From: a bacterium
GTDB lineage: Bacteria > Patescibacteriota > Minisyncoccia > Phycocordibacterales > UBA2100
Direction of reading: 5' to 3'
Assembly: GCA_016789445.1 (NCBI GenBank)
Contig: JAEUQT010000002.1
Location: 8,052 to 72,051, forward strand
Length of the DNA: 64,000 nucleotides
Shown one piece after another: positions 163 through 19,571 of this stretch; the stretch's first letter is position 1; each line of letters begins with the position of its first letter. The notes under the pieces are model-generated. The model was not told where the DNA came from. It was given only the letters and a program-made list of their open reading frames with translations, and did not search any database. A program made the translations under genes and the position numbers.

Positions 163-205
163 TCTCGCGTAATCCAAGGGTTTTTGCTATAAAGACTCGT
201 GCAAT

Positions 206-280
206 GGTGGTCGTAGCTCAATTGGTAGAGCTCTGGTTTGTGGTACCAGCGGCTGTGGGTTCGAGTCCCATCGATCACCC
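206..280 (+). tRNA. tRNA-His (anticodon GUG), with G-1
   Basis: Manual cloverleaf: 7-bp acceptor stem GTGGTCG/CGATCAC (one G-T wobble) with an extra 5-prime G (G-1) typical of tRNA-His. D-arm is AGCTCAATTGGTAGAGC. Anticodon stem is CTGGT/ACCAG with loop TTGTGGT, giving anticodon GTG. T-arm is GTGGGTTCGAGTCCCAT. CCA is not encoded. Confidence 0.8.
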
Positions 281-396
281 CTGATAAGTCCTGATTGAAG
301 CGAAGTGCGGCGCACTTCGCGGTGGGGCTCGAAAGACGGAGGCGCGACGGCGCCGAGTCGGGGTCGCGGGTTTCGCGAGCGCGCGAAAACCCGTGA

Positions 397-416
397 CCGA
401 GCCCATCGATCACCCC
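397..416 (+). repeat. Direct repeat of the tRNA-His 3-prime end (CGAG(T)CCCATCGATCACCCC), 118 nt downstream of the tRNA
   Basis: 19 of 20 nt identical to positions 262-281, with a single 1-nt indel. The intervening ~118 nt is very GC-rich and made of hairpins, for example CGAAGTGCG-GCG-CACTTCG. No tRNA D-arm or anticodon arm is present, so this is a remnant rather than a second tRNA. Confidence 0.55.
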
Positions 417-505
417 AAGTGAATCCCGTAGTTATGCACCCAGGTCCGTATACGGGCGGGAGAGGGGGCTATACTGATGGAAAGGTCGATATATGAGCCA
501 TTCTT

Positions 506-718
506 TTGAATGCCATGAGCTCACTTAACTCTCTGACGTTCATCCTCTTGGTCGTCGGCGGTCTCAACTGGCTGCTGTTCGCCCTCACGGGTATGGATGT
601 CGGTTCCATCCTCGGCGGCATGGATTCGATGATTGCAAAGATCATCTACCTGCTCGTCGGTCTCTCAGCGCTCTACCAGCTCTTCACCCACAAGTGGTCG
701 GGCGGTTCGGCGATGTAA
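506..718 (+). CDS. DUF378-family small membrane protein
   Basis: 70-aa ORF with two hydrophobic helices and a GGLNW motif characteristic of DUF378 proteins. A hairpin lies downstream. Confidence 0.55.
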   Translation: MNAMSSLNSLTFILLVVGGLNWLLFALTGMDVGSILGGMDSMIAKIIYLLVGLSALYQLFTHKWSGGSAM

Positions 719-736
719 GTGTTTTTCGATAGGTTG

Positions 737-761
737 CAAAGCCTCCCTTGTGGAGGCTTTG
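737..761 (+). terminator. Terminator-like hairpin (AAAGCCTCC-cttgt-GGAGGCTTT) without a strong U-tract
   Basis: Perfect 9-bp inverted repeat immediately after the DUF378 gene stop. The weak T-run lowers confidence. Confidence 0.3.
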
Positions 762-859
762 TGCGTTCAGTAAGACGGTGCGTGCTCCGCCGTCTCCTCA
801 GATACTGACCAGAGCGTGATACCATTTACACATTAATTTTCACGCTCTTTCGTCTTTTT

Positions 860-1687
860 ATGGATGAACAATTCAATGGTTCGCGCGCGGTACGTTTCTC
901 GCCGCCGGACATCATCGTCAAGACTGCAGCTGCAGCGCTTGGTGTTTTAGCACTCTTCCTCCTCATACAGACCGTAAAGGCCATGAAGGAGTATCGCTAT
1001 GTCGGTAGCGGCGTCACGGCGACCAATACCATCACGGTCACCGGTAACGGCGAAGTATTTGCGGTGCCGGACCGTGCGACGTTCACGGTAAGCGTGCGCG
1101 AAGAGGCTGAAGATGTTGCGGGTGCACAGGACAAATCGACGGCGAAGATCAATGCGATCATCGCGTACCTTAAGGAAGCCGGCGTCGAAGAGAAAGATAT
1201 CAAGACGCAGAGCTACAACGTGAATCCGAAGTACGAGTATACGCAGGCGGCATGCACCAACTTCTCGTGTCCGCCATCGAATCAGAAACTTGCCGGCTTT
1301 GAGGTCTATCAGACGCTCGAAGTGAAGGTGCAGGATCCGAAGAAAGCTGGGGAGCTGCTCACCGGCGTGGGCGGCAAGGGCGCTTCCGAGGTGAGCTCGC
1401 TTTCATTCACCGTTGAAGATGAAGATGCGCTCCGCGCACAGGCCCGCGAGCAGGCAATCAGTGAAGCGAAGGAGAAGGCAGATGCCTTGGCAAAGCAGCT
1501 TGGCGTTTCCGTCGTGCGCGTCGTCGGCTTCTACGAAGATGCCGGTGGCTATCCTCCGATGCCGTATGCGTACGGCAAGGGTGGTGTCGCTATGGATGCG
1601 GCACTCGAATCCCGCGTCGCACCGACGCTCCCGACCGGTGAGAACAAGATCGTCTCGAACGTGAACGTTACCTACGAGATTCGGTAA
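860..1687 (+). CDS. SIMPL/DUF541-domain protein (26 kDa periplasmic immunogenic protein-like), N-terminally membrane anchored
   Basis: 275-aa ORF with an N-terminal TM helix. Architecture and motifs (KxxAxxxAxxKAxxLA, C-terminal GEN..VxxxVxV) match SIMPL-domain proteins. Confidence 0.65.
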   Translation: MDEQFNGSRAVRFSPPDIIVKTAAAALGVLALFLLIQTVKAMKEYRYVGSGVTATNTITVTGNGEVFAVPDRATFTVSVREEAEDVAGAQDKSTAKINAIIAYLKEAGVEEKDIKTQSYNVNPKYEYTQAACTNFSCPPSNQKLAGFEVYQTLEVKVQDPKKAGELLTGVGGKGASEVSSLSFTVEDEDALRAQAREQAISEAKEKADALAKQLGVSVVRVVGFYEDAGGYPPMPYAYGKGGVAMDAALESRVAPTLPTGENKIVSNVNVTYEIR

Positions 1688-1745
1688 TTCTTGCGTTCGT
1701 GCCCATCCCAGCGTAGTCTCGGGGACGGCAGACAAGGAGAGAGTC

Positions 1746-2024
1746 ATGGCCGAGCGACAGCTCTACAAATACGCGAAACGAGCGGAGACGACAGGTGACG
1801 TGAAGGATGCTATCCGTTTTATCCGGACGAAGCAGAAGGACGCCACGATACGGATCCATATCCGAGGAGCGTGGTCGGGATGCCCGAAGGAGATAACCCT
1901 ACGGCCGCACGGTAACATCAATCGCTTTCAAAAGAGATTGGTAGCTTTGCTTTCGGCACCGCCATTCCAAGAGGTGACGGTGGTCCCGGTTAAAATCGTC
2001 CCCGATGCCTCGAACAAAAGGTAG
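1746..2024 (+). CDS. Hypothetical small protein (92 aa)
   Basis: ORF preceded by GGAGAG 4 nt upstream of the ATG and followed by a strong hairpin terminator at 2032-2056. No recognisable family. Confidence 0.4.
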   Translation: MAERQLYKYAKRAETTGDVKDAIRFIRTKQKDATIRIHIRGAWSGCPKEITLRPHGNINRFQKRLVALLSAPPFQEVTVVPVKIVPDASNKR

Positions 2025-2031
2025 GCGAGAT

Positions 2032-2058
2032 GCGCCCCAGCCGACGGCTGGGGCGCTT
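2032..2058 (+). terminator. Rho-independent terminator (GCGCCCCAGCC-gac-GGCTGGGGCGC followed by TTGACTT)
   Basis: 11-bp perfect stem with a 3-nt loop and a downstream T-rich run, sitting just after the 1746-2024 ORF. Confidence 0.5.
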
Positions 2059-2085
2059 GACTTCTGGACAGAAAGGGAGTATCAT
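2057..2085 (+). promoter_or_regulatory. Sigma70-type promoter TTGACT-N17-TATCAT for the secE-nusG-rplK operon
   Basis: -35 TTGACT at 2057-2062, a 17-nt spacer, and -10 TATCAT at 2080-2085, about 55 nt upstream of secE. A small hairpin (GCCCCC-GCA-GGGGG) sits in the leader. Confidence 0.5.
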
Positions 2086-2139
2086 GATGTCGTTAGTTAA
2101 AGCCCCCGCAGGGGGTTTTAAATTAGGAAAACAATCACT

Positions 2140-2403
2140 ATGGGACTCGGACAATACATCAAAGATACCCGCAGCGAACTCAACCACGTCGCGTGGCCGA
2201 CGCGCGTGCAGACCATCGTGTATACGATCCTTGTGGTTGTTATTTCCATCCTCGTCTCCCTCTATCTCGGCGTGTTCGACTTCCTCTTCACGAACGGCCT
2301 CGGCAAGCTCGTTGAAACGGTACCAGCTGCTCCGCAGGTGACTCCGATCAATCTCGACGACGTCCAGTTCTCGACCACTACCAGCACGACCACGGTAGAA
2401 TAA
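2140..2403 (+). CDS. secE: Preprotein translocase subunit SecE, with an unusual Thr/Pro-rich C-terminal extension
   Basis: Conserved SecE core (R.EL..V.WP.R......T..V........L...D) plus a single TM helix. The position immediately upstream of nusG is the conserved gene order. Confidence 0.8.
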   Translation: MGLGQYIKDTRSELNHVAWPTRVQTIVYTILVVVISILVSLYLGVFDFLFTNGLGKLVETVPAAPQVTPINLDDVQFSTTTSTTTVE

Positions 2404-2407
2404 TCAT

Positions 2408-2950
2408 ATGAAGCAGACCTACGGCACAGATCGTCAGTGGTACGCGGTCCATACCTACTCCGGGTATGAGGATGCGGTCGCGCGCAATCTCAAGCAGCGC
2501 ATCGAATCATTCGGCATGCAGAACAGCATCTTCGATGTCGTCGTCCCCACCGAGAAGAAGATCAAGATCAAGAATGGCCGCAAGACCGAAGTGAAGGAGA
2601 AGACTTTCCCAGGCTATGTCCTCGTGGACATGATCGCCACCGATGAGGCATGGTCGGTCGTCCGCAACACCCCGCAGGTGACCGGTTTCGTCGGTACCGC
2701 CAACCAGGCAGTGCCACTTTCTCCGGATGAAGTCGAAAAGATCCTCAAGCGCACCGCAGGGGAGCAGGTCCGCCATGCGATCGACCTCGCCGAGGGCGAT
2801 GCAGTCGCTATCATCGACGGTCCCTTCAAGGATCTCGAGGGCAAGGTCGGCGAGATTGACGAAGAGCGAGGAAAGGTTAAAGTACTGGTTCCTATGTTCG
2901 GCCGCGAGACTCCGGTGGAGCTCGAAGCTGACCAGGTCCAACGCCTCTAA
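2408..2950 (+). CDS. nusG: Transcription termination/antitermination factor NusG
   Basis: N-terminal [11 protein letters not shown] (NGN domain) and C-terminal KOW motif (GD.V.I.DGPF....G.V.E.D). Conserved secE-nusG-rplK synteny. Confidence 0.9.
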
Positions 2951-2955
2951 TTCAT

Positions 2956-3378
2956 ATGGCAAAAGAAATCACTAAAATCATCAAATTGCAGATCCAGGCG
3001 GGTGCCGCTACACCGGCTCCTCCTGTCGGTACTGCACTCGGTCCAGCCGGCGTCAACATCGGCGAGTTCGTCAACCAGTTTAACGCGCAGACCCGTCCTA
3101 TGATGGGCAACGTCGTCCCGGTCGTCCTCACTGTCTACAAGGACCGTTCGTTCACGTTCATCGTGAAGAAGCCGCCGGCATCCCGTCTCGTTCTCAAAAA
3201 GCTCGGCATCGAAAAGGGTTCAACCAAAGCTCAGAACAAGGTCGCGAAGCTCACCAAGCAGCAGCTCACGGAGATCGCTGAGGAGAAGATGGAAGACCTC
3301 AATGCGTACGATGTAGAGCACGCAAAGAAGATCATCGCCGGTACCGCCCGCTCCATGGGTATCGACGCGGAACTCTAA
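2956..3378 (+). CDS. rplK: 50S ribosomal protein L11
   Basis: Highly conserved L11 N-terminus (K..I.KL.I.AG.A.P.PP.G.ALG..G.NI..F...FN). Confidence 0.9.
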
Positions 3379-3395
3379 GAGTTCTGACTCGGAAA

Positions 3396-3426
3396 GAAAA
3401 AGGCTCCGTAAGGAGCCTTTTTCTAT
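3396..3426 (+). terminator. Rho-independent terminator (AAAAAGGCTCC-gtaa-GGAGCCTTTTTCT)
   Basis: Perfect stem plus a T-tract directly after rplK. It terminates where rplA would normally follow. Confidence 0.6.
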
Positions 3427-3436
3427 TGGGGAAGCC

Positions 3437-5113
3437 GTGTACAATTCGCGCATGCCACAGGTACGCGACGCTCTTGCTACGGCCCTCGAGAAGGAGGGAG
3501 TTCAGGATCCTCAGTTCACTCTCGAACACACGGCGGATTTCGCGCACGGTGATTATGCGTCGAGCGTTGCGCTCGCATATGCGAAGCAGTTGAATACGAA
3601 TCCGCGTTCTCTCGCAGAAAAGCTCGTCGCTTCGATGGGGAATATCGAAGGTGTTTCGAAGATTGAGATCGCGGGTCCTGGGTTCATCAACTTCACCCTC
3701 GAGGCGAAATTTCTCTTTGAGATGCTGAAGATTGGTCTCGCGCACGGTGACGCATGGGGGCGCAGCATGCAGCTGCAGGGAAAGAAGGTGATGGTGGAAT
3801 ATACCGATCCGAATCCTTTTAAGGCATTCCATATCGGGCACCTCATGAGCAATACGATCGGCGAATCACTCGCGCGATTGCAGGAAGCTGCTGGTGCCGA
3901 AGTCATCCGTGCGAACTATCAGGGCGATCTCGGCGTGCATGTCGCCTGTGCCATCTGGGGAATCAAGAAGCTCGGCATCCATCCGACAAACGCCGATGAA
4001 TTCGGTCGCGCCTATGCGGAAGGCGCGACCGCCTACAAAGAGAATGCAGAAGCAAAAACGGAGATCGATGCGATCAATAAGAAACTCTACGATCAATCTG
4101 ATGCTGAATTGAATGAACTGTACGATACGGGACGCACAGAATCTCTTGAGGCATTTGAACGGATTTACGCAATTCTTGGTACGAAGTTTGATCACTATTT
4201 CTTTGAAAGCGAGACAGGGCCGATCGGAAAGAAGATCGTCGAGAGCAATCCGGCAGTGTTCCCAGAATCCGAGGGCGCACGTGTTTTCAAAGGCGAAGAG
4301 CATGGGCTCCATACGCGAGTATTTCTCAATTCCCAAGGGCTTCCGACGTACGAGGCGAAAGAGCTTGGTCTGGAGAAACTGAAGACCGAACTATATCCGG
4401 ATGCGGAGACGCTCTACATCGTGACGGCAAATGAAGTCGTTGATTTCTTCCGCGTGGTGAAAAAGGCGATGGAAATCGTCCATCCGGAAATCGCGGCGAA
4501 GCTTACGCACGTCTCGCACGGCATGATGAAGCTTCCTGAAGGGAAGATGTCTTCTCGCACCGGTAACGTCGTCACGGGAGAATCGCTCATCAAGGACCTC
4601 GCAGAAGTCGCGAAAGAGCGTGCAGCGGAGAGTCGTGCCGACGACAAAGAGAAGCTTGCGCAAGATATCGCCGTTGCGGCAATCAAATTCCAGATTCTCA
4701 AAGGCAGTACCGGCAAGGACATTATTTTCGAACGCGAACGCGCACTTTCCGTCGAAGGCGATTCAGGACCATATCTCCAGTACACGCACGCACGAACGCA
4801 TGCGATCGTCGAGAAGGCGAAGGATTCTGGCGTAGAAGCCGCGTTTGATCCTGCTGCATCTGTGCCAGAGCTTGCGCGCCTCATCTTCCGTTTCTATGAC
4901 GTCGTAAAGCGCTCTCGCGCTGAGCTCGAGCCGCACCATGTGACGAACTACCTCATCGCCGTCGCGGCCGCATTCAATAGCTGGTACGCACAGGAACAGA
5001 TCCTCGATGGCACTCCTGCCGCAGCGCACAAAGTCGCACTTACCGATATAACCCGCCTCACCCTCAAGAACGGCCTCTGGCTTCTCGGTATCCCGACGCC
5101 GGAGAAGGTCTAG
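3437..5113 (+). CDS. argS: Arginine--tRNA ligase
   Basis: Class I HIGH motif (FHIGHLMS) and a KMSKS-like motif (KMSSRTG), with ArgRS-type domain order. 558 aa. Confidence 0.85.
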   Translation: MYNSRMPQVRDALATALEKEGVQDPQFTLEHTADFAHGDYASSVALAYAKQLNTNPRSLAEKLVASMGNIEGVSKIEIAGPGFINFTLEAKFLFEMLKIGLAHGDAWGRSMQLQGKKVMVEYTDPNPFKAFHIGHLMSNTIGESLARLQEAAGAEVIRANYQGDLGVHVACAIWGIKKLGIHPTNADEFGRAYAEGATAYKENAEAKTEIDAINKKLYDQSDAELNELYDTGRTESLEAFERIYAILGTKFDHYFFESETGPIGKKIVESNPAVFPESEGARVFKGEEHGLHTRVFLNSQGLPTYEAKELGLEKLKTELYPDAETLYIVTANEVVDFFRVVKKAMEIVHPEIAAKLTHVSHGMMKLPEGKMSSRTGNVVTGESLIKDLAEVAKERAAESRADDKEKLAQDIAVAAIKFQILKGSTGKDIIFERERALSVEGDSGPYLQYTHARTHAIVEKAKDSGVEAAFDPAASVPELARLIFRFYDVVKRSRAELEPHHVTNYLIAVAAAFNSWYAQEQILDGTPAAAHKVALTDITRLTLKNGLWLLGIPTPEKV

Positions 5114-5116
5114 GCT

Positions 5117-5356
5117 ATGGCGGATCTTTCGGAAATCGCACAGAACTTTAAACATGGTACCTACCGCCATTTCAAGGGTGGAATATATAAGACGATCTGC
5201 ATCGGGCGAAGCAGCGAAGAGCGAGATCAAGAATTTGTCGTATATCAGTCACTTGATCGTGGACATATTTGGATAAGGCCGTTACCGATGTTTATTGAAG
5301 AGGTCGACCGCGACGGATATAAAGGGCCGCGTTTTTCATACGTTGCCGAATCATAG
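5117..5356 (+). CDS. DUF1653-domain protein
   Basis: 79-aa ORF with the GTYRHFKGG.Y......EE.....VVYQSL.....W.RP..MF motif typical of DUF1653. Confidence 0.5.
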   Translation: MADLSEIAQNFKHGTYRHFKGGIYKTICIGRSSEERDQEFVVYQSLDRGHIWIRPLPMFIEEVDRDGYKGPRFSYVAES

Positions 5357-5374
5357 TTTTGCTACACTGCCTGC

Positions 5375-6964
5375 ATGACGCAGGAAGATGCACTCTCCAT
5401 ACTCAAGCTTGGCGTGAATGTCTTCCTCACCGGTGAGCCGGGGGCGGGGAAGACGCATACGATCAACCAATACATCCACTGGCTGCGCGAGCGGGGAGTG
5501 GAGCCGGCAGTGACGGCTTCGACCGGTATTGCGGCGACGCATGTGGGAGGCATGACGATCCATAGCTGGAGCGGTATCGGCGTGAAGAAGAGATTGACCG
5601 ACTGGGATATCGAGAACATCCAAGCTCGGGAGAAGACCGCGAAGCGTATCTATGACGCAAAGATTCTCATCATCGACGAGATCTCCATGCTTGATGCGGA
5701 CACGCTTGAGAGCGTGGATGCGGTGCTGCGTGCGTTGCGGCAGCCGGTCATGCAGGAGAGTCGGCCGTTCGGCGGTCTCCAAGTCATCTTCGTGGGGGAC
5801 TTCTTCCAGCTGCCGCCGGTTTCCCGTGGGGAGAACGTACGCTTCGCCTTTGATTCAGATGCATGGAAAGCCGCGAATCCGGTCGTGTGCTACCTCTCCG
5901 AGCAGCACCGTCAGGAGGATGCAGCATTCCTGGATCTCTTGAATGCCGTGCGTCGCGGAGAGGTGGAAGACGTGCACTATGAATCACTTCGCTCCCGCAT
6001 GAAGCGAGTGAGCGAGAAAAAGAAAGTGACCCGACTGCATACGCATAATGCTGAGGCGGATCGCATCAATGACGAATCGCTCGCCGAGGTAGATGGAAAG
6101 ACCCATGTCTTCCATATGACGACGAAAGGTTCACGTACGCTCGTCGACGCACTGAAGCAGAATGCACTCTCGCCGGAGACGTTGGTACTTAAAGAAGGAG
6201 CGACGGTGATGTTCACGCGCAACAATTTCGATATGGGGTATGTGAACGGGACGCTCGGTGAAGTCGTGGGCTTCGCGAACAGTGGGTATCCGATCGTGAA
6301 GACTAAGAGGGGGGATCGTATCGAGGCGGTGCCGGGAGAGTGGAGTATCACCGACGGCTCGAAAATACTGGCGCAGATAAAACAGGTGCCGCTCCGTTTG
6401 GCGTGGGCGATCACGGTGCATAAATCGCAGGGGATGTCGCTGGATGCGGCGATCATCGATCTATCACAGGCGTTCGAGTTCGGGCAGGGATATGTCGCGC
6501 TCTCGCGCGTGCGTTCGCTCGACGGGCTTTTTCTTGAAGGATTTAACGAGCGAGCCTTGCAGCTGCACCCGCAGATCGTGCGCCAGGACGAACTCTTCCG
6601 TGCAAAATCCGACGCCGCACAGCGACGCATTTCGACCATACCTGATGAGGAGCGGGGAGTGTTGGAGAAGAACTTCCTACGTGCCATCGGCGCACGCGAG
6701 CCGGAACCCATAAAACCCAAGAAAGCTCTCGAAAAGGGAAAGCTCGAAAAAATACGTGAGAAGTTCCCGAATGCCGGTCGTCCGTGGACGAAAGATGATG
6801 ATGAGCGCCTGACGGAGCTCTTTGAAGCGGACACGCCCATGAAAACCATCGCCAAGGAATTCGGCCGCAAAGCGAGTGCTATTACGGCACGGCTCGTGAA
6901 GCTTGAGCTTATCGAAGACCCGTACTGGTCGAACAAAAACAAGACACCTCGCGCTGAAGAGTAG
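5375..6964 (+). CDS. PIF1/RecD-family ATP-dependent DNA helicase with a C-terminal HTH tail
   Basis: Walker A GEPGAGKT, helicase motifs (LIIDEISM, VGDFFQLPPV) and a RecD/PIF1-like C-terminal region (HKSQG). The last ~70 aa resemble a sigma-70 region-4-like HTH. Start is supported by an extended -10 (TGcTACACT) 6 nt upstream. Confidence 0.75.
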   Translation: MTQEDALSILKLGVNVFLTGEPGAGKTHTINQYIHWLRERGVEPAVTASTGIAATHVGGMTIHSWSGIGVKKRLTDWDIENIQAREKTAKRIYDAKILIIDEISMLDADTLESVDAVLRALRQPVMQESRPFGGLQVIFVGDFFQLPPVSRGENVRFAFDSDAWKAANPVVCYLSEQHRQEDAAFLDLLNAVRRGEVEDVHYESLRSRMKRVSEKKKVTRLHTHNAEADRINDESLAEVDGKTHVFHMTTKGSRTLVDALKQNALSPETLVLKEGATVMFTRNNFDMGYVNGTLGEVVGFANSGYPIVKTKRGDRIEAVPGEWSITDGSKILAQIKQVPLRLAWAITVHKSQGMSLDAAIIDLSQAFEFGQGYVALSRVRSLDGLFLEGFNERALQLHPQIVRQDELFRAKSDAAQRRISTIPDEERGVLEKNFLRAIGAREPEPIKPKKALEKGKLEKIREKFPNAGRPWTKDDDERLTELFEADTPMKTIAKEFGRKASAITARLVKLELIEDPYWSNKNKTPRAEE

Positions 6965-6984
6965 CCTTTGCTACGATAGCTTCC

Positions 6985-9900
6985 ATGGCTGAAAATCGGG
7001 GAAAATCAGAGACTGCCAAGCGGGAAGAAGAGGTTCTGGCCTTCTGGAAGGAGAACAAGACCTTCGAGCGCTCCTTGGATAAGAAGGCCCCGAAGGGGGA
7101 ATTCGTCTTCTACGACGGCCCGCCGTTTGCAACCGGATTGCCGCACCATGGCTCGCTTCTTTCCTCGATAATCAAGGACGTCATCCCGCGATACAAGACC
7201 ATGCGTGGCTACAAGGTCCGCCGCCGCTGGGGGTGGGACACGCACGGTCTCCCTATCGAATCGCTTGTCGAGAAAGAGCTCGGTCTCAAGACCAAGAAGG
7301 AGATCTTGGAGATCGGCATAGCGAAATTCAACGACGCGGCACGCTCGATGGTATTGAAGTACGTCCATGATTGGCAGCGATATATCGACCGCGTCGGCCG
7401 CTGGGTGGACTATGAGAACTCCTACAAGACGATGGACAATACGTACATCGGTAGCGTCTGGTGGGCACTCAAGGAGCTCGACACAAAGGGACTTCTCTAC
7501 GAAGGGAATAAGGTCCTCATGTACTGCACACATTGCGAGACGCCGCTTGCGAAAGCGGAGATCGCGATGGACAACACCTACAAGGATATAACCGAAGAGG
7601 CGATTACGGTGAAGTTCGAATTGAAAGAGGAATCAAAGACCTATTTCCTCGCATGGACCACGACGCCATGGACGTTGCCGGGTAATGTCGCGCTCGCGGT
7701 AGGGGCAGAGATCGAGTATGTGAAAGCGAAAGCGGGGGGTAGTGTCTACATACTTGCGAAAGAGCGCGCCGCATCGGTTCTTAAAGATGTCACCCACGAG
7801 ATCGTGGGGACACTGAAGGGAAGCGAGATCGTCGGAAAAGCATACAAGCCGGTTTTTGATGTGGCGTCATTGAAGACAGAAAAGTCACACAAAGTGCAGG
7901 CGGCGGATTTCGTCACCACTGAAGACGGTACGGGCATCGTGCATATCGCGCCGATGTACGGCGAGGACGACAACCAGCTCGGGCAGCGCGAGAAGCTGCC
8001 GATGGTACAGCTCCTTAATCCGAATGGTACGTACAACGATCTGGCACCATCGTTCCTGCATGGACTCTACCTGCGTGACGCGAACAAAGACATCAAGAAA
8101 GATCTCGAATCGCGCGGCCTCTTGTTTGCGCGCGCCAACCATACGCATTCCTATCCGCACTGCTGGCGATGCGGCACACCGCTCATCTATAACGCGGTTT
8201 CTTCCTGGTTCATCAATATCCAGAAGATAAAAAGCCGACTCATCGAGGCGAACCAGGAGATCAACTGGGTTCCGGAGCACTTGAAGAACGGTCGCTTCGG
8301 GAAGATTCTGGAAACCGCACCGGATTGGACGATCTCACGCAACCGCTTCTGGGCATCACCGCTTCCGATCTGGAAATCGAAAGAGGGGAAGGTGATGGTT
8401 ATAGGCTCCCTGGGTGAATTGAAAGAAAAGGCGAAGAAGAGCGGCAACACGTACTTTGTCATGCGCCATGGCGAAGCGGAATCCAATGTCACGAATACGC
8501 TGAGCTCGAAGAAGGATGCGCCTGTCCATCTCACCGAGAAGGGGAAGGAGGATGTGCGTGAGTCTGCAAAGAATCTTGGAAAGAAAATCGATCTCATCGT
8601 CGCGTCACCGTTCGTGCGTACGCGTGAATCGGCTGAGATCGCCGCTGAGGGGCTCGGGCTCAAGAAGAGCGACATCGTCTTCGATGATCGTCTTGGCGAA
8701 TACGATCTTGGGTCTCAAGACGGCATCTCGCTCGAAGAGTGGCATCTCGAATATCCGGCAAATCTAGAGCGTTTCGAGAAAGGTCCGGAAGGTGGCGAGA
8801 ATGACTCTCAGGTGCGTCGACGCATGGGCGCTGTCCTCTGGGAACTGGAAGAGAAGTATCGAGGAAAGAACATCCTCATCGTCTCGCATGGCACGCCGCT
8901 CTGGCTCTTAAAGGGTGCTGCTAAGGGCTTCACGAAAGAAGAGATCGTCGCGACCTACAAGACCGACTATCCGAGTAAGGGAAAGATTACCGAACTCCCG
9001 TTCTCTCCCATTCCGGTGAATGCTGATTTCGAACTCGACCTCCATCGTCCGTACACGGATTCCATTGTGCTCCTCGACGAGGCCGGCACTGAATATCAGC
9101 GCATTCCGGAAGTCATCGACTGCTGGGTGGAATCGGGCTCTATGCCATTCGCCGAATATCACTATCCGTTCGAGAATAAGGCGGAATTCGAGAAGCGAAG
9201 CCCGGGCGATTTCATTGCGGAATACATCGCACAGACGCGCACGTGGTTCTACTACCTGCATGCGATGAGTATCGCGCTCTTTGACCATGTCGCGTTCAAG
9301 AACGTGGTCACGACCGGGACCATCGTCGCGGCCGACGGGGAGAAGATCTCGAAATCGAAGAAGAACTACACCGATCCCTTGGAGCTTATCGACACCTATG
9401 GCGCGGACGCGATGCGCCTCTACCTTATGGGCTCTCCCGTCATGCAGGCGGAGGATCTGCGCTTCCGCGATGAGGATGTGCGTGATGCACATAACCGCAT
9501 CATCGGTATCCTCTGGAACAGCTTCAAATTCTTCGATCTCTATCAGAAGGAGTACGACGGCAAGGCAGAGGGGCGAAAGAGCGAGCATGTGCTCGATCGC
9601 TGGATCTTCGCGCTTCTCGACGAAGTGACTGAAGAGGTGACGGCGGCTATGGAGAGGTATGACACTCCGCGCGCGGCACGAGCGATCCGTGGCTTCGTCG
9701 ACGAATACTCGACGTGGTACGTGCGCCGTTCACGCGAGCGCGTGAAAAGCGAATGGCATGAACGTCAGTTCGCGCTTGCGACGCAACGGGAAGTCTTGCT
9801 CACATTCTCGAAACTCATCGCACCCATCATGCCCTTTTTGGCGGATGCGATCTGGCGCAACATCGAGGATGGCGGCAGCGTGCATCTCGAAGAGTGGCCG

Positions 9901-10425
9901 CAGGTGAAGCGTGGGTTCTTCGCGCGACTCTTCGCTAAGCCGGATGCCATCCTTGCGGAAATGAAGGATGTGCGTTCAATCGTCACCAAGGCGCTTGAGG
10001 CGCGCGACAAGGCGGGCATCAAGGTGCGTCAGCCACTCAATCTCCTGGAGATCGGTTCGAATATCTCAAAAGAACTGCGCGACATCATCCGTGACGAAGT
10101 AAATGTGAAGCAGGTTATGCCTGCGAAAGATCTTGCGGCAGGGGAGGTGCGATTGGATACGGTCATCACACCGGAACTGCAGCGCGAAGGTGAAGTGCGC
10201 GAATTGCTGCGCGCGGTACAGGGGCTCCGCAAGGAAGGAGGACTCAATCCGGGGGATGCTGCAACGATATTGGTCTCGGCTACTGATGAAGCATGCATGC
10301 TCATTGAATCTGCAAAGGACGAACTGGATCGCATCGCGAGTGTGAAGGGAGTCGTATTCACCGACAATGTCGAAGGTGTGAGCGTGAAGCTTGGTAGCGG
10401 GAGCGCCAACATCCGCCTCGGCTAG
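6985..10425 (+). CDS. ileS: Isoleucine--tRNA ligase (type 2), with an inserted histidine-phosphatase (PGAM-like) domain
   Basis: HIGH-region PHHGSLL, WTISRNRFWASPLPIW, LDLHRPY, KMSKS as KISKSKKN, and a C-terminal anticodon-binding region; 1146 aa. Nucleotides ~8395-9040 encode a complete RHGE...SHG histidine-phosphatase fold inserted between the PIPIW and DLHRP segments. Confidence 0.9.
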   Translation: MAENRGKSETAKREEEVLAFWKENKTFERSLDKKAPKGEFVFYDGPPFATGLPHHGSLLSSIIKDVIPRYKTMRGYKVRRRWGWDTHGLPIESLVEKELGLKTKKEILEIGIAKFNDAARSMVLKYVHDWQRYIDRVGRWVDYENSYKTMDNTYIGSVWWALKELDTKGLLYEGNKVLMYCTHCETPLAKAEIAMDNTYKDITEEAITVKFELKEESKTYFLAWTTTPWTLPGNVALAVGAEIEYVKAKAGGSVYILAKERAASVLKDVTHEIVGTLKGSEIVGKAYKPVFDVASLKTEKSHKVQAADFVTTEDGTGIVHIAPMYGEDDNQLGQREKLPMVQLLNPNGTYNDLAPSFLHGLYLRDANKDIKKDLESRGLLFARANHTHSYPHCWRCGTPLIYNAVSSWFINIQKIKSRLIEANQEINWVPEHLKNGRFGKILETAPDWTISRNRFWASPLPIWKSKEGKVMVIGSLGELKEKAKKSGNTYFVMRHGEAESNVTNTLSSKKDAPVHLTEKGKEDVRESAKNLGKKIDLIVASPFVRTRESAEIAAEGLGLKKSDIVFDDRLGEYDLGSQDGISLEEWHLEYPANLERFEKGPEGGENDSQVRRRMGAVLWELEEKYRGKNILIVSHGTPLWLLKGAAKGFTKEEIVATYKTDYPSKGKITELPFSPIPVNADFELDLHRPYTDSIVLLDEAGTEYQRIPEVIDCWVESGSMPFAEYHYPFENKAEFEKRSPGDFIAEYIAQTRTWFYYLHAMSIALFDHVAFKNVVTTGTIVAADGEKISKSKKNYTDPLELIDTYGADAMRLYLMGSPVMQAEDLRFRDEDVRDAHNRIIGILWNSFKFFDLYQKEYDGKAEGRKSEHVLDRWIFALLDEVTEEVTAAMERYDTPRAARAIRGFVDEYSTWYVRRSRERVKSEWHERQFALATQREVLLTFSKLIAPIMPFLADAIWRNIEDGGSVHLEEWPQVKRGFFARLFAKPDAILAEMKDVRSIVTKALEARDKAGIKVRQPLNLLEIGSNISKELRDIIRDEVNVKQVMPAKDLAAGEVRLDTVITPELQREGEVRELLRAVQGLRKEGGLNPGDAATILVSATDEACMLIESAKDELDRIASVKGVVFTDNVEGVSVKLGSGSANIRLG

Positions 10426-10427
10426 GT

Positions 10428-11003
10428 ATGTATCAGAAATATCAGACCGATACGCTCGTCCTGCGTAGCTACGAGCGCGGCGAGGCGGATCGTATCTACG
10501 CGCTCTTTACCCGGGAATTCGGATTGGTGTGGGCACGTGCGACGGCGGTGCGACGCGAGAATTCACGGCAGCGCTATGCACTGCAGAGCGGATCGCGCTC
10601 TATGGTCTCCTTGGTGCGTGGACACAAAGGATGGCGTGTCGCAGGAGCCACTGCCATCGAACAGCTTGATATGCGGAAGGTGAGCGGCGTGCATGCGTTT
10701 ACGCGCATCAGCGCACTTCTAGAGCGCCTCGGTGGCGGGGAGGAACCGAATTCGTATCTCTTCGACACACTGGTTCACGCGTACGCATCTCTGATGCGAG
10801 AGGGGGCGGAGTTGCATCCGGTTATTGAATTGGTCACGGTGGCGCGCATGCTCTTCGCGCTCGGCTACCTTTCGCAGGATGCGTTTGGTACGGCGCTTTT
10901 CGCGGAGACGGCGTACACCGAAGCGGGTTTGCGGGAAGTGCAGGGAGTCCGCTCCCAAGTGCTTGCCTCTGTAAACAAATCGCTGTCCGAGACCCAGCTC
11001 TAA
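10428..11003 (+). CDS. recO: DNA repair protein RecO (short form)
   Basis: N-terminal OB-fold pattern (T..VLRS...GE.DRI..LFT...G......A.R..S.....LQ) typical of RecO. 191 aa, shorter than typical RecO. Confidence 0.55.
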   Translation: MYQKYQTDTLVLRSYERGEADRIYALFTREFGLVWARATAVRRENSRQRYALQSGSRSMVSLVRGHKGWRVAGATAIEQLDMRKVSGVHAFTRISALLERLGGGEEPNSYLFDTLVHAYASLMREGAELHPVIELVTVARMLFALGYLSQDAFGTALFAETAYTEAGLREVQGVRSQVLASVNKSLSETQL

Positions 11004-11019
11004 GTGGTATCATTCCCGA

Positions 11020-12996
11020 ATGCCTCCGCGGGAGCCTTCTCCAAGGGATAGGGAAGAACAAGAGCGTATCAAACGGCTGCGTGAAGCGATGTATTCACGC
11101 AAGCTCGAACCCCTGATCAAGGAGAAGCCGCGCCGTGAACTCGAAGTGACCCCGCCGCCGGTCGGTGAAGAATTCATCCGTGAGGAGCCGCTTCTCCAGC
11201 GCAGCACGGTCGCACCGAAAAGCATCCGCTTCACCCGTGTCCTTATCCGATGGGCGATCATGGCCTCTGTTGCGTTCTTTGTCGGCGCGATCGCTTTTTT
11301 TGCCTACTACTTCTTGCTCGGCGGGGGTTCGACGCCGGTTGATCCGGGCAATATCGATATCTCGGTCTCTGGTCCATTGCAGGTATCGAGCGGTTCTCCG
11401 ACTGAACTACAGGTCGCAGTCGTGAACCGTAATCGCGGCGCACTTGAACTTGCTGATCTCGTTATCAAGTATCCAGACGGCACCCGTTCTCCGGTTGATC
11501 TCAGCACGAATCTCAAGGATCAACGCATCTCACTCGGCAACATCGAACCGGGCGGTCGTCGACAAGGAACGGTCTCGGCGGTCTTTTCCGGTGTCGAAGG
11601 TGATCGCGGCACGATCGAGATCGATCTCGAATACCGTCTTGTCGATTCGAGTTCGATCTTCGTCGCTTCGACCAAGTATCAGATCGTCTTCGCATCCTCG
11701 CCGATCTCGCTTTCCATCGAGGGGAACAGCGAGACCGTCTCGGGACAGCCGATCGAATTCAAGGCGACGCTTGCATCGAATGCGGAATCCGTCGTGAAGG
11801 ATGTGCTTCTCAATGTGAATACGCCGTTCGGATTCACGATGTCGTATGCCGATCCTGCGGCGCAGAGGGTCGCGGGTGGCCAGCTCTGGACGCTCGGAGA
11901 CCTTTCTCCAGGGCAGAAGAAGACGGTGACTCTGCGCGGCGTCATAAGCGGAGAAAGTGGCGATGAGCGCGTCTTCCGTTTCAAAGCAGGTACGCGACCG
12001 GACACAGAGCAGAACGTGCTCACGACGACGCTCGCGGATTATGCGCATCACGTGATAGTCTCGCGTCCGTTCCTCGGACTCGCGGTGACGCTCAACAAGG
12101 ATATGGTGGGCGGAAGCGCGGTGGTTTCTCCGGGGGAAACTGTGAACGTCTCGGTCGCCTACGAGAACAATCTTTCAACTGAAGTGACGGATGCAGTCAT
12201 CGTCGCGCGACTCGGCGGAGTGGAGATCGACGGCGCGACGGTGCAATCGACCGATGGCTTCTATCGTTCGACGGATAAGGTTGTGCTCTGGGATAAGACG
12301 ACGACGCGCGGCACGCTCGGGCGCATCGCATCCGGCGCCAAGGGTACGCTCAACTTCTCATTCCAGATGCCGACCAACGACGTTCTGTCGGAGATCCGCA
12401 ATCCTTCGCTCTCGATCAGCGTGCATGCGGCAGGGAAGCGTGTCTCGGAAAACGGTGTTCCTGAGACGCTTCAGGCGACGGCGGTGCAGGACATCAAGCT
12501 TGCGAGCGATCTCCAGCTCATCGCACAGGGGCTCTACTACTCGAATCCGTTCGGCTCTTCGGGACCGATGCCGCCGAAGGCGAATTCCGAAACCACGTAT
12601 GCCTTGGTATTCAGTCTCACCAACACCACGAACAAGATCAAAGATGGCGTCATAACTGCGGTATTGCCGCCGTACGTGCGTTGGGTGGGTATCTACAGTC
12701 CGTCGAGCGAAGACATCAAATTCAATCAGAACGACAGCACGATGACGTGGCGCGTGGGGGACATCGAAGCGGGTACCGGCGTGAATGGATCGCTCCCGAA
12801 GCAGGCCGCGATCGCGATCGGCTTTACGCCCTCGACGTCGCAGATCGGCCAGCAGCCGCTCCTCATTCGCGACGTCACTCTCAAGGGTAAGGACGAGGCG
12901 ACGGGGGCGAATATCACGCGCGTCGCGGACGATGTCACCACCAATATCAGCGGAGACCCGGGCTTTACCGCAGCCAACGCGAACGTGGTCCGGTAA
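11020..12996 (+). CDS. Membrane-anchored surface protein with a disordered cytoplasmic N-terminus, one TM helix and about four tandem beta-sandwich (CARDB/DUF11-like) domains
   Basis: 658-aa ORF with a charged N-terminus, a TM helix (IMASVAFFVGAIAFFAYYFLL), then repeated ~110-aa beta-rich segments with a recurring G..V.V.N.G / L.Y pattern. Start is supported by an extended -10 TGgTATCAT 6 nt upstream. Confidence 0.6.
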   Translation: MPPREPSPRDREEQERIKRLREAMYSRKLEPLIKEKPRRELEVTPPPVGEEFIREEPLLQRSTVAPKSIRFTRVLIRWAIMASVAFFVGAIAFFAYYFLLGGGSTPVDPGNIDISVSGPLQVSSGSPTELQVAVVNRNRGALELADLVIKYPDGTRSPVDLSTNLKDQRISLGNIEPGGRRQGTVSAVFSGVEGDRGTIEIDLEYRLVDSSSIFVASTKYQIVFASSPISLSIEGNSETVSGQPIEFKATLASNAESVVKDVLLNVNTPFGFTMSYADPAAQRVAGGQLWTLGDLSPGQKKTVTLRGVISGESGDERVFRFKAGTRPDTEQNVLTTTLADYAHHVIVSRPFLGLAVTLNKDMVGGSAVVSPGETVNVSVAYENNLSTEVTDAVIVARLGGVEIDGATVQSTDGFYRSTDKVVLWDKTTTRGTLGRIASGAKGTLNFSFQMPTNDVLSEIRNPSLSISVHAAGKRVSENGVPETLQATAVQDIKLASDLQLIAQGLYYSNPFGSSGPMPPKANSETTYALVFSLTNTTNKIKDGVITAVLPPYVRWVGIYSPSSEDIKFNQNDSTMTWRVGDIEAGTGVNGSLPKQAAIAIGFTPSTSQIGQQPLLIRDVTLKGKDEATGANITRVADDVTTNISGDPGFTAANANVVR

Positions 12997-13034
12997 ATAG
13001 CCTCGGCGACTAAAATGCGCTATACAGAATCCCT

Positions 13035-14345
13035 ATGAGCGACGTCAGTATGGAAAAGATCGTCTCCCTCGCCAAGCGTCGAGGATTCATTTACCCCGGA
13101 TCGGAGATCTACGGAGGGCTCTCGGGTACCTGGGACTACGGCCCGATGGGAGTGGCTCTGAAGCGGAATATCCAGAATCTCTGGTGGCGGATGTTTATCG
13201 AGAGCCGAGATGATATGTTCGGCGTCGACGCGGCCATCCTCATGAATCCGAAAGCATGGGAAGCATCGGGGCATGTGAGCGGATTCTCTGATCCGATGGC
13301 GGAATGCACCAAGTGCAAGCGACGTTTCCGTGCCGATCATGTCGAAGGGAATGTGTGCCCTGAATGCGGTGGGAAATTGGGCGAGGCCAAGCAGTTCAAT
13401 ATGATGTTCAAGACGCAGGCAGGCGCCAGCGAAGACGCTGCGGCGACGGTGTATCTGCGACCGGAAACCGCCGGCGGCATGTTCGTGAATTTCAAGAATG
13501 TGATGGACAGCCAGCACCCGAAGCTGCCGTTCGGCTTGGGACAGATCGGTAAGGCGTTTCGCAACGAGATAGCTCCCCGCGACTTTGTCTTCCGCTCCCG
13601 CGAGTTCGAGCAGATGGAGATCGAATACTTCGTCCATCCGTCGCAGTGGGAAGGGAAGTTCGAGGAATGGAGGAAGGCCATGCACGAATGGATGAAAGCG
13701 GTCGGGCTCGATATGTCGAAAGTAAGCGAGCTTGAAGTGGCTCCTGAAGACCGTGCGCACTACTCGTCGCGCACCATCGACTTCGAGTTCGAGTATCCGT
13801 TCGGAAAGAAAGAGCTCTACGGTCTCGCATATCGTACCGATTTCGATCTCAAAGCGCATGCCGAACACTCGAATGTCGATCTTTCGGTCATGGATGAGGA
13901 GGCGAAGGAGAAATACGTACCACATGTCATCGAGCCGTCGTTCGGGCTTGAACGTACGGTGCTCGCGGTCTTACTCTCGGCATACACCGAAGATGGGCTC
14001 GGCGAGAACGGTCGCGTCTTCCTGAAGCTTGATCCGAAGATTGCGCCCGTGAAAGCGGCGGTCTTCCCGCTTCTCAAGAACAAGCCTGAACTCGTCGCGA
14101 AGGCGCGCGAGGTATACGAGATGCTCAAGAAGGAGGTTCCGAACATCATGTGGGATGACAATGGCAATGTCGGGAAGCGCTATCGTCGTCAGGACGAGAT
14201 CGGTACGCCGTACACCATCACCATTGATTTCGATACGCTGGGCGAAAGTGGTGACGAGAAGAAAGACACCGTCACTCTGCGCGATCGTGATACGGGAGAG
14301 CAGGAACGCGTCGCGATGGGGGATCTCCTTGCGCGCATCCGTTAA
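13035..14345 (+). CDS. glyQS: Glycine--tRNA ligase (dimeric alpha2 type)
   Basis: Class II GlyRS motifs (IYGG..G.WDYGP.G, RPETA, FR.EI..R...FR.REFEQMEIE). Confidence 0.85.
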   Translation: MSDVSMEKIVSLAKRRGFIYPGSEIYGGLSGTWDYGPMGVALKRNIQNLWWRMFIESRDDMFGVDAAILMNPKAWEASGHVSGFSDPMAECTKCKRRFRADHVEGNVCPECGGKLGEAKQFNMMFKTQAGASEDAAATVYLRPETAGGMFVNFKNVMDSQHPKLPFGLGQIGKAFRNEIAPRDFVFRSREFEQMEIEYFVHPSQWEGKFEEWRKAMHEWMKAVGLDMSKVSELEVAPEDRAHYSSRTIDFEFEYPFGKKELYGLAYRTDFDLKAHAEHSNVDLSVMDEEAKEKYVPHVIEPSFGLERTVLAVLLSAYTEDGLGENGRVFLKLDPKIAPVKAAVFPLLKNKPELVAKAREVYEMLKKEVPNIMWDDNGNVGKRYRRQDEIGTPYTITIDFDTLGESGDEKKDTVTLRDRDTGEQERVAMGDLLARIR

Positions 14346-14369
14346 ACGTCGCTATGCTATCATCCTCTC

Positions 14370-15422
14370 ATGGGAGGGACTCAGATTTCCATCACGACCG
14401 GCACGATAGTTAAGACGCTCCTTATCCTTATCGGGGCATGGCTCCTATGGTATTTGCGCGATGTCGTCCTCATCGTCCTTACCGCAATCGTCGTGGCCTC
14501 AGCGCTTGAGCCGGCGGTTGCGGCTTTGCGTCGCTGGAAGGTGCCGCGGTTGGTCGCAGTGATCTTCATCTACCTCCTTCTGGCGCTCTTTCTCGTCGGC
14601 ATCTTCTACTTCTTCATGCCGCTCATCCTGGATGAGCTGGCGGCATTCCTGGCATCGCTACCGGTGTACCTGACAGCGATCGATAGTTCTCCCGTGCTGC
14701 AGGACTACAGCGCCATCTTCGGTCTGCCGGGAGGGGACACCAGCGGGGTTATGGAGAGCGTCCGTGCGGGAGCGAGTCTCACAGGGCTTTTCGGTAATTC
14801 ATTCAGCGCGGCGGCAAGCATCTTCACGGGCCTTTTCGCGTTCATTCTTGTCGTCGTCTTCTCGTTCTATTTCACGGTCGCTGAAACGGGTGTCGATGAC
14901 TTCTTGCGCGTCATCGTGCCGAAGAAGCATCAGTCGTATGCACTTGATCTGTGGTTCCGTTCTCGTCACAAGATCGGTCTTTGGATGCAGGGGCAGCTCA
15001 TTCTCGCCGTCATCATCGGTGTCATGGTCTATCTCAGTCTTATGATCCTTGGCATCAAGCACGCGCTTCTCCTTGCGGTTTTTGCAGCCGTATTCGAACT
15101 TATTCCCGTCTTCGGGCCAACGCTCGCGGCGGTACCAGCGGTCCTTATCGGTTTTGCAGAAGGGGGAGTAAGTACGGGGCTTATTATCATCTTCCTCTAT
15201 GTCATCATCCAGCAGTTCGAAAACCATCTCATCTATCCGGTCGTGGTGACGCAGGTGGTCGGCGTGCCGCCGCTTCTCGTTATCTTGGGCCTCATCGCCG
15301 GATGGAACCTTGCCGGATTCCTCGGCATCGTCCTCTCCGTCCCGATGGCGGCAGTATTGCAGGAACTAGTGCGCGACCTCAATCACGGAAAGATGTTTGC
15401 AGGCGAGGGAGGGAAGGTATAG
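14370..15422 (+). CDS. AI-2E family transporter (UPF0118/PerM-like membrane protein)
   Basis: 350 aa with eight predicted TM helices and the AI-2E pattern (YP.......P.L.I..L..G). Confidence 0.7.
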   Translation: MGGTQISITTGTIVKTLLILIGAWLLWYLRDVVLIVLTAIVVASALEPAVAALRRWKVPRLVAVIFIYLLLALFLVGIFYFFMPLILDELAAFLASLPVYLTAIDSSPVLQDYSAIFGLPGGDTSGVMESVRAGASLTGLFGNSFSAAASIFTGLFAFILVVVFSFYFTVAETGVDDFLRVIVPKKHQSYALDLWFRSRHKIGLWMQGQLILAVIIGVMVYLSLMILGIKHALLLAVFAAVFELIPVFGPTLAAVPAVLIGFAEGGVSTGLIIIFLYVIIQQFENHLIYPVVVTQVVGVPPLLVILGLIAGWNLAGFLGIVLSVPMAAVLQELVRDLNHGKMFAGEGGKV

Positions 15423-15431
15423 GGTACGTGC

Positions 15432-17692: not shown

Positions 17693-17754
17693 CCCGTAAA
17701 TGAGCCGATTCTTGCGATTTTCATACCCGCGTGCTACAGTGCCCGAACTCAAAT

Positions 17755-18246: not shown

Positions 18247-18259
18247 GTATACTTATCGT

Positions 18260-18703: not shown

Positions 18704-18712
18704 ACAAGCTTT

Positions 18713-18910: not shown

Positions 18911-18922
18911 TGCTTCTGGAGA

Positions 18923-18952: not shown

Positions 18953-18965
18953 TAGGGGAGAGACG

Positions 18966-19532: not shown

Positions 19533-19571
19533 ATCGGCGTATTCTAGCCAGAAACACGCCCTTGTCCAACC

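Follow-up and report, generated by a model that had tools for sequence, protein, structure and literature searches.

Extended -10 promoter elements phased to ATG start codons suggest leaderless mRNAs in Paceibacterota lacking an anti-Shine-Dalgarno sequence

A -10 promoter hexamer placed directly before the start codon is an accepted marker of leaderless genes (PMC3160421, PMC6028130). Zheng 2011 described a TA-like signal, TANNNT, ~12 nt upstream of the start in 36-46% of genes in Deinococcus-Thermus and ~19% in Actinobacteria, the criterion being that TA-led genes outnumber those in dinucleotide-preserving shuffles of the upstream regions (PMC3160421). Lomsadze 2018 defined group C of GeneMarkS-2 by a Pribnow box 6-8 nt from the start (PMC6028130), and in Deinococcus radiodurans a -10 motif lies 6-7 bp upstream of one-third of the open reading frames (ORFs), beside a GGAG ribosome-binding site (RBS) motif (Zhong 2025, PMC12340547). 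Validation of the marker by differential RNA-seq (dRNA-seq) and reporters in Deinococcus and Mycobacterium is described in that article and, as cited there, in Cortes 2013 (PMC3898074). For Parcubacteria, Tsurumaki 2022 (RNA 28:1041) reported loss of the anti-Shine-Dalgarno (anti-SD) sequence in a subgroup that overlaps the uL1-lacking group, with no mention of leaderless mRNAs or of an initiation mechanism (PMC9297842). Here we analyse 64 kb of contig JAEUQT010000002.1 (hereafter the window: the whole 64,000-nt stretch) from an uncultured patescibacterium, in which a TANNNT box, mostly extended to TGnTAnnnT, stands 6-7 nt before the ATG of ileS and many other genes, suggesting that leaderless mRNAs serve ribosomes without an anti-SD.

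The window has ~55% G+C, and its IleRS (6985-10425) is 73% identical to proteins of Candidatus Paceibacterota/Minisyncoccia metagenome-assembled genomes (MAGs) and 41-58% identical to those of other Patescibacteria, which places the organism in the Parcubacteria/Paceibacterota group. Genes were called with a self-trained codon model that takes the first ATG of each ORF as the start, a rule blind to the motif. Independent gene calls came from public read-set assemblies of the same or a near-identical genome, reached via ileS and TrwB ATPase look-ups only: L001 covers window positions 1-20.4 kb, and the sister strains L082 (98.7% identical) and L083 (91-97%) cover ~49.6-64 kb. The window proteins at 41828-42739 and 24892-26853 gave no match in public assemblies. 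Six loci (L002-L007) represented close relatives and five (L008, L010, L021, L039, L040; 33-40% G+C) distant Paceibacterota/Nomurabacteria, and Firmicutes and Bacteroidota loci passed through the same pipeline as controls. Four loci labelled Candidatus Peribacteria (L023, L025, L026, L033) were excluded because they yielded no ORFs under code 11; without long ORFs in this code, they may use another one (with UGA reassigned) or be Gracilibacteria-like genomes under a wrong label.

Among 49 first-ATG starts of the window, 16 had TANNNT at a spacing of 5-9 nt and 14 at 6-7 nt, compared with 2.3% of internal ATGs. Dinucleotide-preserving shuffles of the proximal 40 nt upstream gave 1.53 +/- 1.21 such starts (maximum 7 in 1000) against the observed 14, and the enrichment at spacing 6-7 has a Poisson p of ~1e-9. 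An initial annotation of this DNA had read such hexamers as leaderless-type starts and named AT-rich composition as the competing explanation; the enrichment lies well beyond what composition predicts. In L002-L007, 39 of 106 genes carried the box, with 4.11 expected from shuffles (maximum 12). When the window and these relatives were pooled (155 genes), the spacing histogram showed 38 boxes at 6 nt, 15 at 7 nt and 0-7 at every other spacing from 0 to 39, where internal ATGs predict 0.4-1.2 per spacing. The distant Paceibacterota/Nomurabacteria loci had the box at spacing 6 in 27 of 93 genes. Overall, box-type starts make up 33-40% of window genes and 29-62% of genes in relatives.

The phasing was also visible without gene calls. 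An ATG stood 6 nt after any TANNNT 26 times and 7 nt after it 20 times, compared with ~7-15 times at most other spacings. Behind strong matches to an extended -10 matrix trained on relatives only, ATG was the commonest triplet at spacing 6 in the window (9 of 73, ~1 expected), GTG and TTG were never found there, and 13 ATGs stood at spacing 6-7, 10 of which begin an ORF of 60 aa or more; all starts listed below are ATG. Through the same pipeline, Firmicutes loci gave a broad SD peak and no -10 box at starts, and Bacteroidota loci gave neither an SD nor a -10 peak, indicating that the method discriminates. Loci from Moraniibacteriota, Magasanikbacteria and Levyibacteriota lacked the signature, which is thus a property of a sub-clade and not of the candidate phyla radiation (CPR) as a whole. 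The pattern closely resembles group C of Actinobacteria and Deinococcus-Thermus, in which TANNNT likewise lies 6-8 nt before the starts of operon-first genes with only T1, A2 and T6 informative, covers about one-third of genes (D. radiodurans ~1/3, Deinococcus-Thermus 36-46%; here 33-40%) and helps to correct starts.

Within the hexamer the interior is mildly biased (consensus TA(c/t)A(a/c)T) and the information lies at T-12, A-11 and T-7. The flanking columns, which were not selected for, showed T-15 in 34 of 61 and G-14 in 43 of 61 sites of the close group and in 34 of 40 and 29 of 40 of the distant group, and hexamer-aligned sites were weakly enriched for TTG at -35 to -33. With information confined to T-12, A-11 and T-7 plus T-15 and G-14, this is the recognition pattern of sigma-70 and not that of a base-paired helix. 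Extended -10 (TGn) promoters, a classical class in E. coli and Gram-positive bacteria, work without a good -35 element. The boxes described here share with them T-15/G-14 upstream of TAnnnT and a weak or absent -35, and differ in that most protein-gene promoters belong to this class, whereas a near-consensus -35 is seen at the rRNA promoters. The window does not include rpoD, the gene for the housekeeping sigma factor whose region 3.0 recognises the TG. Untranslated genes carry the same boxes (forward strand). The 16S and 23S rRNA genes are preceded by TTGACA-N16-TATACT (47279-47306) and TTGACG-N17-TATACT (33564-33592), respectively, and the three tRNA genes by a -10 alone, 9-13 nt from the mature 5' ends: TACAAT at tRNA-Leu (51205-51219, 9 nt), TGcTATAAA at tRNA-His and TAGAGT at tRNA-Ile. 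As the 16S promoter contains TATACT, the same -10 consensus drives an untranslated gene. Judged by sequence, the box is a sigma-70 extended -10 promoter element, and its modal spacing of 6 nt, the canonical discriminator length, would place +1 on the A of the ATG.

Comparison of orthologues supported this assignment. Protein alignments begin at residue 1, and the box is found at the same spacing while spacer and flanks change. It is kept at ileS, argS, the AI-2E transporter gene, metG, the PIF1 helicase gene, efp and glyQS, at 40-75% protein identity. Upstream of ileS, TTGCTACGAT-N7 is identical in three genomes (window, L002 and L003), and with a diverged spacer L004 has TTGCTAGGAT-N6 (TAGGAT) and L005 GCGGTACACT-N7 (TACACT). 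TGnTAnnnT at N6-7 precedes argS in all four orthologues (L002, L005, L006, L007) and the AI-2E gene in six of six. The metG box reads TAGGGT, TAATGT and TAGGCT in L002-L004, and glyQS has TATACA in L002 and L003 and TATATT-N7 in L004. At rpsF, the same box lies 11 nt upstream in L002 and L003, and TGcTAAAGT at N11 in L005. The coupled genes recO, rplK and rpsR had no box in the window or in the relatives examined.

No SD signal was evident in this organism. The covariance-model alignment of the 16S rRNA ends at 49014 with GGAUUCAUUCUAAA, at the position where E. coli has GGAUCACCUCCUUA; the 3' end (48997-49014, forward strand, GUGGAUUCAUUCUAAA) lacks the anti-SD CCUCC, and no CACCTCCT was found near the 16S gene. 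SD 4-mers were not enriched (8% of starts, 7.8% of internal-ATG controls), whereas the same pipeline found an SD at 44-60% of genes in Firmicutes loci; the degenerate anti-SD noted in the initial annotation is matched by missing SD motifs. Upstream of box-less genes, the k-mers that stood out were those of stop codons and displaced boxes, and none was purine-rich. The energies computed for duplexes of upstream regions were indistinguishable from those of internal-ATG controls, whether the partner was the native 16S tail (p = 0.57) or a canonical one (p = 0.16). This sets the lineage apart from group C, whose phyla keep a canonical anti-SD and GGAG-type RBSs on leadered and internal genes; here the anti-SD is gone and RBS motifs are undetectable.

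BLAST found no 16S genes in the ileS-centred loci, so whether the promoter signature goes with the 16S tail was examined in a different set of metagenomic loci, centred on 16S. A metagenome scan with the helix-45 signature of the group yielded 120 16S ends, 119 of them with a scorable tail, and in 112 of these 119 no CCUCC follows helix 45 within ~25 nt. These AT-rich tails vary strongly from lineage to lineage, as would be expected of a sequence released from selection, and the box occurs across different tail classes. Of 384 genes beside CCUCC-less 16S genes, 23 had TGNTANNNT at spacing 6, compared with 6-8 at spacings 7-9 and 0-2 at most others. At the seven loci with a canonical tail, the box was absent from all 17 genes and 7 of the 17 had an SD-type 4-mer at spacing 5-7. 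As only these 7 loci and 17 genes have a canonical tail, the association of tail type with promoter signature is suggestive rather than strong. In the anti-SD-less metagenomic loci, GGAG-type 4-mers peaked at spacing 7 (20 against ~3); they were concentrated in the UUCC-containing tail class GGATTAATTCC (9 of 42 genes), where UUCC could pair with GGAG via one G-U.

The 16S rRNA has further peculiarities. At 1462 nt it falls short of the 1533-position model, and several of its helices are reduced. Downstream of its 3' end, at 49015-49035, lies a UUCG-tetraloop hairpin, CTTCTCTTCGGAGAAG, that recurs in 19 of the 119 related 16S copies (among them L172, L138, L144 and L156; 0.8 expected from shuffles); its distance from the GUGGA at the 16S 3' end is mostly 13-33 nt and in one case 52 nt. 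The stems differ by compensatory changes (L172, CCTCCTTCGGGAGG), and the hairpin could be a processing stem, a terminator or an rRNA 3' extension. The rRNA genes are unlinked (23S 33942-36898, 5S 37174-37279, 16S 47553-49014): 23S and 5S share one site (33942-37279), and 16S followed by tRNA-Ile lies 10 kb further on (47553-49675).

Curation of 53 window genes gave ~21 of leaderless type. In another ~7, including ftsK, secD, rpsF and murI, the box stands at 10-15 nt, which would give SD-less leaders of 3-9 nt, and ~6 have a good box 25-58 nt upstream. Strong extended -10 elements at 10-15 nt were seen at 17732-17757 (rpsF), 29654-29679, 31918-31944, 44560-44581 (secD) and 23335-23356 (ftsK, minus strand). 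A further 11-13 genes overlap the preceding gene or start within 5 nt of it and have no box; rplK, recO, tatD, 42736, secF, murD, murC, 57365 and the DUF4015, LTD and glycosyltransferase genes are of this coupled type. The initial annotation had called leaderless-type starts dominant, which holds in a weaker form: they account for ~40% of all genes and about half of the non-coupled ones, reaching ~70% if leaders of up to 9 nt are counted. In the pooled clade, an overlap with the preceding gene or a gap of at most 8 nt was found for 47 of 128 box-less genes versus 9 of 69 box-bearing genes. Conversely, 37 of the 69 box-bearing genes with a same-strand neighbour sit no more than 30 nt behind it, with the promoter within its last codons, and in five cases (for example metG and 41828) the upstream stop codon TAG or TAA supplies the first bases of the hexamer. 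TG is similarly frequent in embedded (57%) and free-standing (69%) boxes, indicating that both are the same element. Both this high TGn frequency and the embedding of more than half of the promoters in the end of the preceding gene distinguish the lineage from group C. In the window and L002-L007, the base before the ATG is T in 49 of 94 box-less genes, which is partly explained by stop-start junctions of the TAATG and TAGTATG type.

All sequence-level tests thus agree that these are -10 elements set for transcription to begin at the start codon, as the initial annotation proposed. What the DNA shows directly is the motif with its spacing, flanks and conservation, its occurrence at RNA genes and the lack of both SD and anti-SD; the transcript 5' ends and the mode of ribosome loading are what we infer from them. 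On these grounds, we consider it very probable that extended -10 promoters phased to the ATG yield leaderless mRNAs for anti-SD-less ribosomes, with downstream genes served by termination-reinitiation. In this model, -10 elements, mostly TGnTAnnnT with a weak -35, would be followed by a canonical 6-7-nt discriminator that ends at the start codon, so that RNA polymerase would initiate on the A of the ATG or one base before it and produce a leaderless pppAUG... mRNA. Ribosomes lacking an anti-SD would initiate on this 5'-terminal AUG with initiator tRNA and would need no SD pairing. Non-first genes would be translated by stop-start coupling at ATGA overlaps or gaps of 1-5 nt, and in a minority of genes the mRNA would carry an SD-less leader, either very short (3-9 nt) or longer. 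As more than half of the promoters fall within the final codons of the gene before, the genome would be divided into many one- or two-gene leaderless units.

Several observations weigh against this model. About seven window genes have no recognisable signal, and a few genes keep AGGAG 7-10 nt before the ATG (window 44417 and 30118, both minus strand; L002 9895, L005 6189 and 5240, L006 14085). Many boxes follow the upstream gene at 4-24 nt without an intervening terminator, so read-through transcripts with internal AUGs must also exist. A generic two-hexamer scan (TTGACA/TATAAT) of positions 1-20000 returned 10 sites, compared with 10.1 in shuffles; the -35 therefore adds little support, and it is the extended -10 on which the promoter call depends, although the scan is itself uninformative because -35 elements are weak here. 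Some starts given by the first-ATG rule are surely wrong, but such errors dilute the signal and do not create it. Finally, the transcription start sites (TSSs) of the Paceibacterota genes are deduced here from geometry alone; a literature search for CPR TSS data returned one Saccharibacterium only.

The best-surviving alternative accepts the boxes as real promoters and supposes that protein is made mainly from read-through or upstream-initiated transcripts, by termination-reinitiation or 70S scanning, the ATG-adjacent promoters being secondary or regulatory. This would suit the 37 of 69 box-bearing genes packed behind a neighbour and the lack of an evident terminator between most closely packed genes, as well as genes that differ between relatives: tatD is coupled in the window and has TACTAT-N6 in L002, and for murI, TATAAT in the window contrasts with a 2-nt gap in the sister strains. 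However, boxes also occur after long gaps, behind hairpin terminators (argS, 37339) and in divergent pairs (23455, 52785, 40463), where no upstream transcript can serve the gene. Phasing to one nucleotide and the ATG-only rule would moreover be purposeless unless the 5'-terminal AUG is used, and the box is conserved across 40-75% protein identity. We regard this explanation as unlikely.

Even less probable, and in our view only faintly so, is that TAnnnT acts on the mRNA as a translational signal, either as a non-SD RBS pairing with the altered 16S tail or as an A/U-rich, protein-mediated site in a short 5' untranslated region. A distance of 6-9 nt from the ATG is also typical of an RBS, and the reverse complement of the 16S tail GGAUUCAUUCUAAA contains TAGAAT, which is found at nusG, efp and the aminotransferase gene. 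Yet only positions 1, 2 and 6 and the TG are conserved, matching sigma-70 contacts and not a helix, and the same box precedes untranslated rRNA and tRNA genes. The 16S tails vary widely between related lineages while box and spacing stay constant; the box is absent from internal coupled genes, which would need an RBS most; and the spacing peak is one nucleotide wide, as opposed to the broad SD peak of Firmicutes. SD pairing with the altered tail was rejected because duplex energies equal those of controls (p = 0.57). That the pattern is a functionless by-product of composition, upstream TAA/TAG stop codons or biased start choice can practically be dismissed: AT content is slightly higher in upstream regions (51%) than genome-wide (45%), a stop codon supplies the TA in five cases and starts were picked by a simple rule, but shuffles reach only 1.5 against 14 (window) and 4.1 against 39 (relatives), neighbouring spacings in the same sequences are at background, the unselected flanking TG is enriched, annotation-free tests are positive, Bacteroidota and Firmicutes loci show no peak and independent gene calls agree with the starts, so that chance, composition and stop-codon artefacts were rejected on the shuffle, spacing and annotation-free controls.

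All 12 sites listed in the initial annotation were found in place, and eight more were added (nusG 2408, argS 3452, metG 15432, 41828, the aminotransferase gene 52785, 58046, the epimerase gene 62121 and 40463). In what follows, box coordinates are on the forward strand unless marked minus. At ileS (6969-6987), the sequence reads tTGcTACGAT-agcttcc-ATG, that is TGcTACGAT-N7-ATG, with a position weight matrix (PWM) score of 10.6 bits. The PIF1 helicase gene (5360-5377; TGcTACACT-N6-ATG, 11.2 bits) has a box conserved in L002 and L003, and argS (3437-3454; gTGTACAAT-N6-ATG) follows a hairpin and T-run after rplK. TGcTATCAT-N6-ATG precedes the AI-2E transporter gene (14355-14372), and TGgTATCAT-N6-ATG that for a 658-aa hypothetical protein (11005-11022). 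For the latter, the independent caller chose the ATG at 11089 instead of 11020; orthologues have TGcTAAAAT-N6-ATG at offset 0 in L003 and TGgTAAAAT-N6 at +2 codons in L002, which supports the start at 11020. The glyQS site (13018-13037; gcgcTATACA-N8-ATG, 3.1 bits) is present and conserved as TATACA in L002 and L003, but it lacks the terminal T and is thus an imperfect hexamer. Of three starts corrected in the initial annotation, recA 20639 (20637-20654, minus strand; TACATT-N6-ATG, 355 aa) agrees with an independent 355-aa call and 23455 with the ORF structure, whereas the correction at rpsF was not confirmed; its box (17732-17757; gTGcTACAGT-N14-ATG, 11.0 bits) implies an SD-less leader of ~7 nt and not a leaderless mRNA. 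The gene at 23455, which encodes a 270-aa protein without a Pfam match, has gcgcTATACT-N6-ATG (23440-23457) with TTGATA at -35 and an 18-nt spacer, and efp (19530-19549, minus strand) has TAGAAT-N8-ATG with TTGGAC at -35 and a 17-nt spacer.

The nusG box (2393-2410; TAGAAT-N6-ATG) lies within the last secE codons across a 4-nt gap, and those of metG (15417-15434; TAGGGT-N6-ATG) and of the gene for a 303-aa protein (41813-41830; TAGTAT-N6-ATG) take their TAG from the stop codon of the upstream gene, in the case of metG the AI-2E gene. TATACT-N6-ATG is found at ssb (18245-18262), gcgcTATACT-N7-ATG at the TrwB-type ATPase gene (59569-59587), ggGTATACT-N7-ATG (8.0 bits) at the gene for a 77-aa protein that was called independently in L082 (58030-58048), and TATACT-N9 or TACTGT-N7-ATG at that for a 261-aa protein after the 5S rRNA (37323-37341). 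A sugar transferase gene (40445-40465; TATGAT-N9-ATG) forms a divergent pair with 40403, the start of the aminotransferase gene (52770-52787; ggcTAGAAT-N6-ATG) agrees with independent calls in the sister strains, and the epimerase gene (62106-62123) has ggcTACTCT-N6-ATG. At murI (54001-54022), the spacing is TATAAT-N10-ATG and not N9 as initially annotated. Compared with the sister strains L082 and L083 (around 4431-4463), murI carries a 162-nt insertion at its 5' end (window 53886-54019) that holds TATAAT-N10-ATG and repeats the first 11 codons, the two copies both encoding MIGLFDSGSGG with synonymous differences only. In the sister strains, murI starts 2 nt behind the aminotransferase stop codon and is thus coupled. 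The gene represents a natural switch between coupled and promoter-led expression, the insertion having probably arisen by recombination with a divergent allele.

The 1146-aa IleRS has its class I catalytic domain split in two by an inserted histidine-phosphatase domain (Pfam His_Phos_1, E 6e-32) at residues 491-653 (window 8455-8943). IleRS proteins of L002-L010 match it over the full length, and the insertion seems common to the clade.

Beyond group C, other lineages share single features with the one described here. Leaderless archaea (Haloferax, Sulfolobus; group D, PMC6028130) have leaderless first genes and little or no SD use, but their TATA/BRE (TATA box and B recognition element) lies ~26 nt upstream and the anti-SD is retained, in contrast to a bacterial -10 at 6-7 nt. 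Bacteroidota (group B, PMC6028130) likewise show no SD enrichment, but keep the anti-SD and have no -10 peak at the start. The Parcubacteria of Tsurumaki 2022 match in lineage (Parcubacteria/Paceibacterota) and in a 16S 3' end without CCUCCU. In the window, a hairpin and argS come after secE-nusG-rplK instead of rplA (2140-3452), and rplJ-rplL lie 27 kb away without rplA beside them (30310-31194); rplA is thus not at its usual place between rplK and rplJ in the window, which would fit the reported overlap with the uL1-lacking group (PMC9297842). To that work, the present data add a candidate initiation mechanism and the high variability of the 16S tails. In the searchable literature, which covers few subscription journals, no paper was found that connects leaderless mRNAs with CPR, Patescibacteria or Parcubacteria, and the main texts of PMC3160421, PMC6028130 and PMC12340547, as distinct from their supplementary genome lists, do not discuss Patescibacteria or Paceibacterota. 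The architecture is therefore of the known group C type and the lineage is new. The lineage truly departs from Actinobacteria and Deinococcus in one respect: there leaderless genes occur alongside an SD system, and here that system is absent.

Leaderless expression may explain the published anti-SD loss in Parcubacteria, and offers a testable answer to how translation starts there. For MAGs of this kind it suggests a start-calling rule, the ATG 6-7 nt after TGnTAnnnT, as at 11020 in place of the 11089 of a standard caller, and it supplies candidate promoter/5'-end cassettes for CPR genetics. A bolder version, to which we give slightly less than even chances, is that anti-SD-less Paceibacterota/Parcubacteria gave up SD pairing altogether and make protein only from leaderless 5'-terminal AUGs and stop-start reinitiation, with most genes their own transcription unit. 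If true, this would be the first bacterial lineage with leaderless initiation as the sole de novo route and not one of two, and it would account for the free drift of the 16S 3' tail in the group. Overall, the findings would make this the third large bacterial lineage in which leaderless expression dominates, here in combination with very small genomes and reduced ribosomes, and bear on whether leaderless initiation is ancestral or has repeatedly re-evolved.

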